Below, piece after piece: positions 34,080-36,330 of a stretch of DNA of 64,000 bases. Below the pieces are notes generated by a model, which worked only from the letters and a program-made list of their open reading frames with translations, was not told where the DNA came from and searched no databases. The stretch spans positions 46,159-110,158 of the forward strand of contig NZ_DASYGX010000005.1 in NCBI RefSeq assembly GCF_035999125.1, given 5' to 3'. Within the stretch, counting starts at the first letter, position 1. The number at the start of each line of letters is the position of its first letter. The translations under genes and the position numbers were made by a program. The DNA comes from Brevundimonas sp. (GTDB lineage: Bacteria; Pseudomonadota; Alphaproteobacteria; Caulobacterales; Caulobacteraceae).

Positions 34080-34080
<1 letters not shown>

Positions 34081-34625
34081 TGAAGACGACGGCCGTCATC
34101 CCGGCGATGATGGCCGCCTCGCTGTGCGCCACGGTCGCCGCGGCCCAGGAAGCCCGCATCGACCCCGTCGAAACGCCGCGAGTCTTCCGGGAAGCGGTGC
34201 TTGGCTTCTGCGCCGAGCGCATCCACGGAGAAGCTCTGATCCCGCACTCCGTCGATCCGACGGCTGAGGGATGGCTGGACGTGCGGCGTGACGCCCTCGT
34301 CACCGGTGGCCAGAGAATCTTCTCCGGACGGGTGCACGCCGCGACGGGCGTGATCGTCGACGTCGCTCCAAGCGGCAACACCTGCTTCGTGCAGATCAAC
34401 CTCGCCACCCCGGTTCTGGGGGTCGTCGATGAGCTTCGCGCAGAAATTCTCGGGCGCCCCGGCGCGACGCTTCTCGACGAACGCAACATGCCGGAAGGGC
34501 ATCACACGCTGTACGGACTGCTCGATGATCAGTCCGACGCTGTGCCGATCTTCGCGGTGAACGATTCTGGAGCTGAAGGACCCGTGGCGACGGTGATCGT
34601 CGCGATGGGCTCCAAGGAAAACTGA
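34080..34625 (+). CDS. Hypothetical exported protein encoded between atpD and atpC
   Basis: 181 aa. The ATG overlaps the atpD stop (TGATG) and its stop lies 1 nt before the atpC ATG. Signal peptide [25 protein letters not shown]. Two mature-region Cys residues. No recognisable family. Confidence 0.65.
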
Positions 34626-34626
34626 C

Positions 34627-34896
34627 ATGGCCGGCAAACTGAACTTCTCCCTCGTCTCGCCCGAGCGCGAGGTCTTCTCGGGCCTGGTGGACCAGGTCGA
34701 CGCCCCGGGCGTGGAGGGCGACTTCGGCGTCCTGGCCGACCACGCGCCCTTCATGACGGCGCTGAAGGAAGGCACGGTCGTCGTGATCGACGGCGGCACG
34801 CGCCGCCGGTTCGAGGTCCACGGCGGCTTCGCCGACGTGACCCCCGCCGGCCTGACCATCCTGGCCGAGCGCGCCCAGGAACTGACCGAGGCGTGA
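34627..34896 (+). CDS. atpC: F1 ATP synthase subunit epsilon (short form, 89 aa)
   Basis: MAGKLNFSLVSPEREVFSGLVDQVDAPGVEGDFGVLADHAPFMTAL... is the epsilon beta-sandwich domain. The ORF ends shortly after it. Confidence 0.88.
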   Translation: MAGKLNFSLVSPEREVFSGLVDQVDAPGVEGDFGVLADHAPFMTALKEGTVVVIDGGTRRRFEVHGGFADVTPAGLTILAERAQELTEA

Positions 34897-35471
34897 TGCG
34901 CGCCGCCGCCCTGGCCGGTCTGGTCTGGGCCTCGGCGGGCGTCGTCCAGGCGCAGACCGCTCAAGAGACGACCGACGCCGCCGTCCGCGGTGCGCTGTGG
35001 TGCGTGGGCAAGGCCGAGGAAGCGTTCAGGCCCGAGGTCGAGCCGACGACCTTTGAAGAGATCGTCGCCGATGGCCCCGGCGCGGGTTTTCAACTCGTCT
35101 TCGGCCAGATGTCGATGGCGTGGGTCTTTCATCCCACGCCGACGGGCGACGACGCCGCCGTCATGATCTTCGGCATTCCGGGCCAGTGCGGTGGCCAGAG
35201 CCTCGATGTGGGCGACGTGCGTCAAGCGGTGGAGACGGCTTACCTGAACGCGGGCTTTGCGACCGTCTTGGTGGACGGGCCGGACGGGGAGCGGATTCAG
35301 CTATGGCACAGGACGTCCGCTCTCGGCGGCGTCTACGCCGGAGTCGTCCCGGCCGAGGAGGCGCCGGATCGGGTGAACTTCTTCGCCGTGGAAGAGCCTC
35401 TCTTTCTGGAAGGCCTTCAATCGGCCGAGACGGACGCGGACTTTCAGGAGGAAGGCGGGCCCCCGGAGTGA
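34896..35471 (+). CDS. Hypothetical exported protein coupled to the atpC stop
   Basis: The GTG at 34893 or the ATG at 34896 overlaps the atpC TGA. Signal peptide MRAAALAGLVWASAGVVQAQ. Two Cys residues spaced similarly to those in the 34080 ORF. Acidic C-terminal tail. Confidence 0.6.
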   Translation: MRAAALAGLVWASAGVVQAQTAQETTDAAVRGALWCVGKAEEAFRPEVEPTTFEEIVADGPGAGFQLVFGQMSMAWVFHPTPTGDDAAVMIFGIPGQCGGQSLDVGDVRQAVETAYLNAGFATVLVDGPDGERIQLWHRTSALGGVYAGVVPAEEAPDRVNFFAVEEPLFLEGLQSAETDADFQEEGGPPE

Positions 35472-35525
35472 GCCGTCGGTCAGGCCGACGGGCCCCTCTT
35501 GACCGCGTGTGCTCAGAAAGGCCTG

Positions 35526-35774
35526 ATGGGTCCTTCCGCAGCCGGAGGTGGCCGTTTGCGCGTCCTGACCCTGTGCGTCGCCGCTCTTCTGGCGACCGGA
35601 TGCGCCGCCCTCGGCGAGCCGGTGCTGGACGCCGACGGCTGCCGGCCGGCCATGGCCATCTATCAGCCGCCGGTGCGGCTGGGCGGCACGGGCTCGATCC
35701 TGCACATCCCCCGCGCCTGCCCCGCGAAGACGCCGCCCGCCGCGCCGTCAGGAACCGAAGCTTCGCCGGAGTGA
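35526..35774 (+). CDS. Small putative lipoprotein
   Basis: MGPSAAGGGRLRVLTLCVAALLATGC carries an LATGC lipobox. High GC3. About 82 aa. The start is uncertain; the ORF-track start is 35499. Confidence 0.45.
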   Translation: MGPSAAGGGRLRVLTLCVAALLATGCAALGEPVLDADGCRPAMAIYQPPVRLGGTGSILHIPRACPAKTPPAAPSGTEASPE

Positions 35775-35817
35775 ACGAAAGCGGCTAGGCTCGGGCTCAA
35801 AGCTGGAGGAACCGCCC

Positions 35818-36330
35818 ATGCGCCCCATCGCTTTCGCCGCCCTGATCGCTTTGTCGGCTTGCGCCGCCGCCCCTCGGCCCGCCTGCGGCTGCCTGCCGCC
35901 CCGGCCGGACCCGACCGCGCCGACGCCCGTTCTGTCTCCGGAAGCCGAGGCCTTGCTGGTGATCGAAGCGCTGGAGACCGGCTGTCGCGACATGGGCACG
36001 CCGGCCGCCCCGACGCGCGAGGCCCTGTCCAACGGCTGGGTCCGCGTGATCCCAGCGACCCCATACGTGCCCTGCGCGGTGGAGGTGGACGGCCCGTCAG
36101 CGCGAATCACAGCCGTGGACGAGGCGCTGCTTGCCCATGCCGAGGCCATGGACCTGACGTGGAACGTCCGGGACTCCTATCCGCTGTGGACGGACGGTCG
36201 GCGCGTGGTCCGACGCGTCCGTGGCGAGAACGGCCTCGGCGAGCCGGAAATGGGCTGGACCTTCACCCAGTTCGAGGCGCCGTCCCAGACGACGACGACC
36301 CTGCGGATCGAGTGGCGCCCCGCGACTTGA
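35818..36330 (+). CDS. Putative lipoprotein
   Basis: GGAGGA Shine-Dalgarno 6 nt upstream. MRPIAFAALIALSAC lipobox. 170 aa, Cys-containing. No recognised family. Confidence 0.6.
   Translation: MRPIAFAALIALSACAAAPRPACGCLPPRPDPTAPTPVLSPEAEALLVIEALETGCRDMGTPAAPTREALSNGWVRVIPATPYVPCAVEVDGPSARITAVDEALLAHAEAMDLTWNVRDSYPLWTDGRRVVRRVRGENGLGEPEMGWTFTQFEAPSQTTTTLRIEWRPAT

Follow-up and report, generated by a model that had tools for sequence, protein, structure and literature searches.

What is a gene for a predicted exported protein doing between the genes for two cytoplasmic subunits of the F1 ATP synthase? Few bacterial gene orders are as conserved as that of the ATP synthase operon, and the bacterial enzyme is not known to have any exported component. 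The locus that raises this question lies in a 64,000-nucleotide stretch of DNA from Brevundimonas sp. (contig NZ_DASYGX010000005.1, positions 46,159 to 110,158), hereafter the window. Here, in a region of ~69% G+C, an alphaproteobacterial F1 operon on the + strand shows the delta-alpha-gamma-beta-epsilon order, as read from the list of open reading frames (ORFs) and from synteny with the loci of relatives, the closest of which are annotated as Brevundimonas or Alphaproteobacteria metagenome-assembled genomes. Between its beta gene atpD and its epsilon gene atpC stands ORF1, and three further ORFs with putative export signals, ORF2 to ORF4, follow atpC (Table 1). In the literature that we searched, there was no description of an exported gene at atpD/atpC. 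We report that ORF1 belongs to an undescribed family of predicted exported proteins whose link to the beta/epsilon gene junction has outlasted deep divergence.

Purifying selection acts on ORF1, a real gene with 13 close homologues (181–186 amino acids (aa), 57–93% identity): five pairwise comparisons with relatives gave a ratio of nonsynonymous to synonymous substitution rates (dN/dS) of 0.14–0.15. Throughout the Brevundimonas-like clade it forms one of the inner cistrons of the F1 operon, atpH-A-G-[vapBC]-D-ORF1-C, located between atpD and atpC in all related loci with enough sequence (L001, L002 and L004–L011). What comes after atpC is entirely different from locus to locus: a gene of the beta-lactamase fold, one for an SMR transporter or the ORF2–4 set. 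ORF1 itself, with its precise junctions, is fixed in this clade, within which its synonymous divergence (dS) goes up to 1.6. The initial annotation of this DNA had described uncharacterised exported ORFs woven into and after atpD-atpC and had proposed to look for the same gene order in related genomes. The ORFs are borne out as genes by dN/dS and homologues, with signal peptides or lipoboxes called by sequence heuristics, and the atpD-ORF-atpC order recurs both in the window's clade and in distant lineages.

The codon usage of ORF1 sets it apart from its neighbours. Its G+C content at third codon positions (GC3) is 0.79, compared with 0.93–0.96 for atpG, atpD and atpC; ORF1, ORF2 and vapBC fall at 0.79–0.82, and the four frames ORF1–4 span 0.79–0.87. 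For the same genome pairs, the synonymous divergence of ORF1 is 2–5 times that of atpD. The absence from ORF1 of the codon bias seen in the ATP synthase subunit genes argues against its equal, stoichiometric expression.

The fit of ORF1 into the atpD-atpC gap is exact, as first described. The atpD TGA (34078–34080) and the ORF1 ATG have one base in common (TGATG), a start junction that is identical in nine related Brevundimonas-like loci, and the ORF1 TGA (34623–34625) is followed by one base and then by the atpC ATG at 34627. The overlap of the ORF2 start with the atpC stop likewise holds, again with one base in common in TGATG; a GTG one codon upstream is an alternative ORF2 start. At its 3′ end, ORF1 keeps the pattern AAGG(A/G)(A/T)AACTGA-N1-2-ATG in nine loci, and the Shine-Dalgarno-like site for atpC that is embedded in its last codons explains the invariant ORF1 C-terminus G-x-K-G/E-N. 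Judging from this junction geometry, ORF1 is probably coupled in translation with both atpD and atpC. Ribosomes finishing atpD at UGAUG would reinitiate on ORF1 by termination-reinitiation, and translation would then pass from ORF1 to atpC through the AAGGA site and the ORF1 stop 1 nt before the atpC AUG, so that epsilon synthesis would be coupled through ORF1. In Phenylobacterium-like relatives (L015 551–555), the atpD stop overlaps the atpC start directly, also as TGATG; in the window's clade, ORF1 (junction 34078–34082) stands exactly at that coupling site and provides atpC with a new Shine-Dalgarno-like site.

Database scans placed ORF1 in no described family. Scans of Pfam, NCBIfam, PADLOC and PHROG gave no match for ORF1 or for any of ORF2–4, 21 ORF1-family members and 10 companion ORFs, the Pfam families DUF1795, PsbP and LpqN included. 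A profile search with ORF1 against PDB sequences, a tblastn search for plasmid copies and a Foldseek comparison with viral structures all came back empty, and the PADLOC and PHROG scans gave no sign of anti-phage defence or phage-derived genes. The Pfam and NCBIfam models for AtpI, AtpZ, zeta/DUF1476 and Atp12 gave no match at expectation values (E) up to 1. These scans of Pfam, NCBIfam, PADLOC, PHROG and PDB sequences agree with the initial annotation, which could assign the ORFs to no family and had taken a match to a well-known one as the case against itself; such a family was looked for and not found. By sequence comparison, ORF1 is the founding member of an undescribed family with two conserved cysteines. 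The family is rare: a profile search of 1.84 billion cluster representatives returned 20 matches, of which ~15 are genuine clusters (138–294 aa), and a pattern-limited scan of 185,579 species genomes yielded 2 confirmed relatives and one further doubtful Clostridiales match (32% identity over 67 residues). Five long repetitive proteins among the 20 profile matches (P0023, P0030 and others) were set aside; the two inspected are repeat artefacts, and the rest look like such artefacts too.

In the alignment of 21 sequences, C44, W65, C102, V104 and Q105 are invariant and L41, G42, G50 and D59 nearly so, and the CxVQ strand is present in all aligned members. Signal peptides were called by heuristics, namely a positively charged n-region, a hydrophobic h-region of ~10–15 residues and a small-x-small cleavage motif. 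All 21 members have a hydrophobic N-terminus (maximum 10-residue Kyte-Doolittle mean 1.9–3.2), preceded by K or R in 18; the character of this segment is conserved, its sequence is not. Within the close family, A22 and Q23 never vary and A20 hardly does, and A20-x-A22↓Q23 fits signal peptidase I. ORF1 is thus a likely Sec substrate cleaved at A-x-A↓Q, and the presence of two invariant cysteines in a putative exported protein suggests a C44–C102 disulfide. One member, P0025 (290 aa), carries an N-terminal helix-Cys/strand-Cys domain followed by an ORF1-family domain that ends just after the CFVQ strand, and represents a natural fusion in tandem or else two neighbouring genes read as one.

The AlphaFold model of ORF1 (predicted local distance difference test score (pLDDT) 81.5, predicted template-modelling score (pTM) 0.78), in which pLDDT is below 50 for residues 1–24, the disordered signal region, consists of a helix at 31–49 that contains C44, strands at 65–67, 84–86, 92–95 and 101–107 (the last with C102), a helix at 113–124 and four strands reaching residue 178. 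In the ORF2 model (pLDDT 80.3, pTM 0.76), C36 lies in the first helix and C98 in the strand 97–103, followed by a helix at 108–118, four strands and one extra C-terminal helix. Helices and strands follow one another in the same order in both models, and the cysteine landmarks first picked out by eye hold within one residue (ORF1 C44/C102, ORF2 C36/C98). Foldseek searches of the PDB matched ORF1 best to DcrB (6e8a, E 1.9e-3, TM 0.33/0.38), then to LpqN, EagT6/SciW, PsbP/PnsL, PA94, MTC28 and TiME; for ORF2, the matches were SciW, PsbP, PA94, LpqN, DcrB and EagT6, with E of 0.02–0.3. All of these structures are of the Mog1p/PsbP-like group. DcrB falls within the Mog1p/PsbP family (PMC7716261). 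As a lead, the models point to a Mog1p/PsbP/DcrB-like fold for ORF1 and ORF2, and ORF1 would be a non-enzymatic alpha/beta domain with its N-terminal helix on an antiparallel sheet and one probable C44–C102 disulfide.

Mog1p/PsbP-like proteins (DcrB/DUF1795, LpqN, MTC28, TiME and PsbP/PnsL, with EagT6/SciW in the cytoplasm) resemble the modelled ORF1 and ORF2 in being ~150-aa alpha/beta proteins with an antiparallel sheet flanked by helices. These best Foldseek matches of both ORFs are mostly exported or lipid-anchored non-enzymatic binders at membrane complexes. ORF1 differs from them in having no sequence match to their Pfam families and structural scores that are weak, and in its long N-terminal helix with a conserved cysteine, presumably paired to that of the CxVQ strand; none of the described members is known to have its gene in an ATP synthase operon. 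On its predicted fold, we class ORF1 as an operon-embedded accessory gene for a PsbP/DcrB-like putative exported protein.

The association with atpD/atpC extends well beyond the window's clade. Gene context was recovered for ten lineages, the window's clade included (a metagenome scan with a narrower alignment had given one locus), and in 8 of the 10 an ORF1-family member stands at the atpD/atpC junction or just after atpC. The arrangement that had been called unexpected is indeed unusual; it is also more general than the initial annotation knew, with distant members found at the same place. P0028 (L021/22) lies between atpHAGD and an atpC of 132 aa, and P0033 (L013, 45% GC) between atpD and an atpC of 133 aa. 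Elsewhere the member has company within the gap: P0032 (L017/18) is preceded by a 184-aa ORF and followed by a 155-aa ORF ahead of a 135-aa atpC, and P0044/P0035 (L023, L012) by a 204-aa ORF and a 184/187-aa ORF, respectively, ahead of an 89-aa atpC. P0020 (L014) comes directly after atpD. Two members lie beyond atpC: P0021 (L015/16, Phenylobacterium by its atpC) in the order atpD-atpC-P0021, and P0024 (L020) after atpD, atpC and a lipoprotein gene, with an ORF4-like gene and another exported ORF behind it. For P0038 (L019) and P0034 (L024), no atp neighbour is visible on their short contigs. A tie of ORF1 to the short form of epsilon was considered and rejected, given that members accompany epsilons of 89–91 aa and also of 132–135 aa.

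At the atp-linked loci outside the window's clade, atpD is 68–93% identical to that of the window (79–93% where more than 63 residues are comparable), and the ORF1-family members are 27–36% identical to ORF1. The family therefore evolves fast yet stays at the locus, in lineages that span 45–72% GC. Two to four extra ORFs surround the family gene in L017 (264–1848), L023 (4390–6139) and L020 (1503–4015), and the atpD-atpC gap of other lineages holds one to three companion ORFs. By eye, most companions show a signal peptide, a helix with a cysteine, a strand with a cysteine, a helix and more strands. The two in L017, of 184 and 155 aa, form a paralogous pair (E 5e-29) without signal peptides, and one of them is without the second cysteine; the L012 companion ORF showed no significant similarity to ORF1, ORF2 or ORF4.

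In the window itself, ORF2–4 are outside the conserved unit and peripheral, being found only in the closest relatives. A search with ORF2 returned six proteins, one of which is the window copy, and the gene is absent from L002 and L007–L011. Two independent assemblies of one relative (L004 6817–7393; L006 970–1546) have the ORF2 orthologue split by a frameshift into 131-aa and 68-aa pieces, which suggests that it is dispensable or decaying there. The dN/dS is 0.23 for ORF2 and 0.40 for ORF3; the value of 0.83 for ORF4, at 39% identity, comes from a saturated comparison and is not informative. The two lipobox ORFs that had been noted after ORF2 are confirmed. Against the lipobox pattern [LVI][ASTVI][GAS]C at the end of a signal peptide, ORF3 makes a loose match through its own ATG↓C, and its L001 orthologue (1795–2001) is a 68-aa lipoprotein with a canonical LAGC lipobox; ORF4 has LSA↓C, and its L001 homologue LAA↓C. 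ORF4 homologues are found in L001 (2096–2686) and, directly after the ORF1-family gene, in L020 (2904–3419), at 28–39% identity, the L020 171-aa ORF matching with a phmmer E of 3e-5.

How, then, might ORF1 serve its host? The role that we consider most likely, tentatively and at somewhat less than even weight, is that of an accessory gene. ORF1 would form the conserved centre of a small islet of exported and lipoprotein genes that evolves fast and varies between lineages (ORF2–4 here, different companions in other lineages), lodged in and expressed from a very stable, highly transcribed F1 operon. In the envelope, the islet products would serve as binding or scaffold proteins in sub-stoichiometric amounts and not as ATP synthase subunits, their tie to the enzyme being co-expression, not catalysis. 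What leads us to this reading is that the family is rare and patchily distributed, that its companions vary in number and kind, that ORF2 decays in one relative, that codon bias is low and that VapBC lies one junction upstream; the fixed junctions with differing downstream genes in nine loci also count in its favour.

The VapBC pair (31837–32507) lies between atpG and atpD. The same insertion is present in L004/L005 and in the distant L023, the antitoxin C-termini of the window and L023 being nearly identical, and it is absent from L002, L007–L010 and L021; its GC3 is 0.79–0.81, as opposed to 0.93–0.96 for the atp genes. Because the pair is common to the window and L023, passengers can evidently persist in the F1 operon without a tie to the ATP synthase. 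Accessory islets at hotspots, including toxin-antitoxin modules, resemble the ORF1 locus in patchy distribution, variable content, atypical codons and fast evolution, and the VapBC pair in the same operon adds to the likeness. Unlike the cargo of such islets, that of the ORF1 locus is not random, with the same exported two-Cys family in eight lineages, and ORF1 is fixed with precise coupling junctions across its clade.

Several observations weigh against the islet reading. Members of one family are found again and again at a single locus, arranged differently (on either side of atpC and with different companions); this exceeds what a generic insertion hotspot predicts and agrees with selection for a link to ATP synthase. 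ORF1 overlaps atpD and atpC tightly, in the manner of genes for subunits of one complex. The fold matches are weak (best E 1.9e-3, TM 0.33–0.40, none with E below 1e-3). Finally, the putative export of ORF1 rests on heuristic signal-peptide calls, and we infer its expression and localisation.

A separate matter is whether the exported ORFs share an origin. The initial annotation had seen, by eye, a common architecture in ORF1 and ORF2. Predicted structure upholds it, with the four landmarks in equivalent elements; sequence statistics do not. Pairwise and profile alignment of ORF1, ORF2 and ORF4, the check that it had put forward, was not significant by BLASTP or hhalign: with hhalign, E was 0.09–0.11 for ORF1 and ORF2 (probability 0.5–0.6%), 0.03–0.05 for ORF1 and ORF4, and 0.17–0.18 for ORF2 and ORF4, the probability being at most 1.5% throughout. 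The hhalign alignments do put the second cysteine and the next helix in register, and Cys-Cys matches bias local alignments that way. ORF1, ORF2 and ORF4, with the companions of other lineages, may nonetheless be tandem paralogues of one ancestral two-Cys exported domain that have diverged beyond the reach of sequence comparison, a proposal to which we give appreciable but minority weight; common ancestry of ORF1 and ORF2 in particular seems about equally plausible. It would account for the shared element order of the two models, with the Cys, helix and FAV landmarks in equivalent elements, for their picking the same structures (SciW/EagT6, PsbP, PA94, LpqN and DcrB) and for the two such domains in the single chain of P0025. 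It also agrees with two hhalign matches, one between the ORF1 family and the L023 204-aa ORF upstream of P0044 (E 5.6e-4, probability 30%, across both cysteines) and one between the ORF4 family and an L004 115-aa lipoprotein (E 9e-4). The non-significant alignments among ORF1, ORF2 and ORF4 speak against it, as do the pull of high-scoring Cys-Cys matches, which draws local alignments to the landmarks, and the fact that the fold is common among periplasmic proteins.

It is possible, if doubtful, that the ORF1 family is instead a periplasmic partner of F1Fo, that is, an extrinsic, probably sub-stoichiometric assembly, stabilising or regulatory factor. By analogy with PsbP-fold proteins at the lumenal face of photosystem II and NDH, it might, with the same doubt, dock on the periplasmic face of Fo, at subunit a, the N-termini of b/b′ or the c-ring. 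Members of ~30% identity keep the atpD/atpC linkage in 8 of 10 lineages through rearrangements, at 45–72% GC and with short and long epsilon, and the overlaps with flanking subunit genes are of the translational-coupling type. The fold group (DcrB, LpqN, PsbP and PnsL) is, moreover, typically tied to membrane complexes (PMC7716261). However, the family is very rare and most alphaproteobacteria are without the gene; a plain delta-alpha-gamma-beta-epsilon unit is present in 89.1% of Alphaproteobacteria (PMC5709465). The codon bias of ORF1 is far below that of the atp genes, the gene sits in the F1 operon and not in the Fo operon, and for two members (L019 and L024) no atp neighbour is seen. The toxin-antitoxin pair in the operon is just as "conserved", which means that trapping without function does happen here. 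We also know of no periplasmic subunit in any bacterial ATP synthase, which counts against a partner on that side. That the family is an extrinsic periplasmic partner of Fo, kept in the F1 operon to be made alongside beta and epsilon, much like the PsbP-fold extrinsic proteins of photosynthetic complexes, is a reading that we find unlikely, a shade more so than the general proposal. The islet and Fo-partner readings remain close.

The known accessory factors AtpI/UncI, AtpZ/AtpR, the alphaproteobacterial zeta inhibitor (DUF1476) and Atp12-like F1 chaperones are small, non-catalytic and attached to F1Fo genetically or functionally, and some are encoded inside atp operons, as is ORF1. They are membrane-integral or cytoplasmic, whereas ORF1, with its signal peptide and conserved cysteines, is predicted to be periplasmic, and it is far rarer than any of them. 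The nearest precedent for a gene without assigned function inside an alphaproteobacterial F1 operon may be an unidentified reading frame, "gene X", that Tybulewicz, Falk and Walker reportedly described in 1984 in the Rhodopseudomonas blastica atp operon, where it separates the gamma and beta genes. That is the gamma/beta junction, where the window has VapBC; ORF1 is at beta/epsilon. Were ORF1 an Fo partner, no earlier exported accessory protein would, to our knowledge, be on record for a bacterial F-type ATP synthase, and the family would open up a new class of accessory factors at the periplasmic side of the enzyme. Should it not act on Fo, the locus is a clean case of envelope genes and a toxin-antitoxin pair as fixed, translationally coupled passengers in an essential operon, which bears on how far gene-neighbourhood evidence deserves trust.

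A third possibility, which we regard as very unlikely, is transertion, in which the main use of the signal-peptide cistrons would be to hold the F1 mRNA, with its ribosomes, at the inner membrane, so that beta and epsilon are made next to Fo; the mature ORF proteins would, on the same slender odds, matter less. Exported and lipoprotein cistrons do recur around atpD/atpC while their sequences diverge quickly, and Alphaproteobacteria keep F1 and Fo in separate operons (PMC5709465). Nevertheless, the mature domain is under clear purifying selection and has invariant Cys and Trp residues and a CxVQ strand, which a mere tether does not need, and most relatives manage without the gene. Sec substrates of such hydrophobicity are, in addition, usually exported post-translationally. 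Unlikelier still, and effectively refuted for ORF1 and ORF2, is the notion that ORF1–4 are chance open frames or annotation artefacts in GC-rich DNA: such DNA does give many long spurious ORFs (dozens in the ORF list) and ORF4 has a dN/dS of 0.83 against its L001 counterpart, but ORF1, ORF2 and ORF3 have dN/dS of 0.14–0.40, length and frame are kept in many independent metagenomes, the AlphaFold models are confident, and the lipoboxes and signal peptides are conserved.

Table 1 Features of the F1 operon and the adjoining exported-protein genes, in window coordinates.
Feature	Position	Strand	Evidence
atpH (delta/OSCP)	28549..29298	+	ORF list; synteny with PF00213 genes in L004, L007 and L010
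atpA (F1 alpha)	29347..30879	+	Synteny with PF00006/PF00306 genes
atpG (F1 gamma)	30913..31791	+	Synteny with PF00231 genes
FitA-like ribbon-helix-helix antitoxin, between atpG and atpD	31837..32139	+	PF22513, E 2e-16
PIN-domain (VapC-like) toxin	32136..32507	+	PF01850, E 4e-11; 4-nt overlap with antitoxin gene
atpD (F1 beta)	32542..34080	+	PF00006, PF02874, PF22919
ORF1, 181-aa exported protein (predicted)	34080..34625	+	Homologues, dN/dS, placement, AlphaFold model
ORF1 predicted Sec signal peptide, residues 1–22, cleavage A-x-A↓Q	34080..34145	+	
AAGGA Shine-Dalgarno-like motif for atpC, in last ORF1 codons, with ORF1 stop and atpC ATG	34614..34629	+	
atpC, 89-aa epsilon, beta-sandwich domain only	34627..34896	+	PF02823, E 7e-26; NF009983
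ORF2, 191-aa exported protein (predicted)	34896..35471	+	Five homologues besides window copy; dN/dS; AlphaFold model
ORF3, small lipoprotein (predicted)	35526..35774	+	Lipobox LLATG↓C; L001 orthologue; dN/dS
ORF4, 170-aa lipoprotein (predicted)	35818..36330	+	Lipobox ALSA↓C; homologues in L001 and L020

A few features of the surrounding operon complete the picture. The true start of atpH is probably downstream of 28549, as relatives encode 184 aa. On the + strand, the terminator and promoter scan detected neither a terminator nor a promoter; a hairpin after ORF2 (CCGTCGG-TCAGG-CCGACGG, 35473–35491) and other intergenic folds were no better than shuffled sequence (z −0.6 to −1.5), and an Rfam scan across 27000–38000 gave no match. 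The atpC product scores 131.5 bits against NF009983, an 88-aa NCBIfam model with a cut-off of 106, and is therefore a recognised short form and not a truncation artefact; this 89-aa epsilon is without the C-terminal helical hairpin. Adjoining ORF4 on the − strand (36445–39255) are two tandem amidohydrolase-family genes with signal-like N-termini, a pair that is kept in L004/L005, and L001 instead has NUDIX and polysaccharide deacetylase genes.

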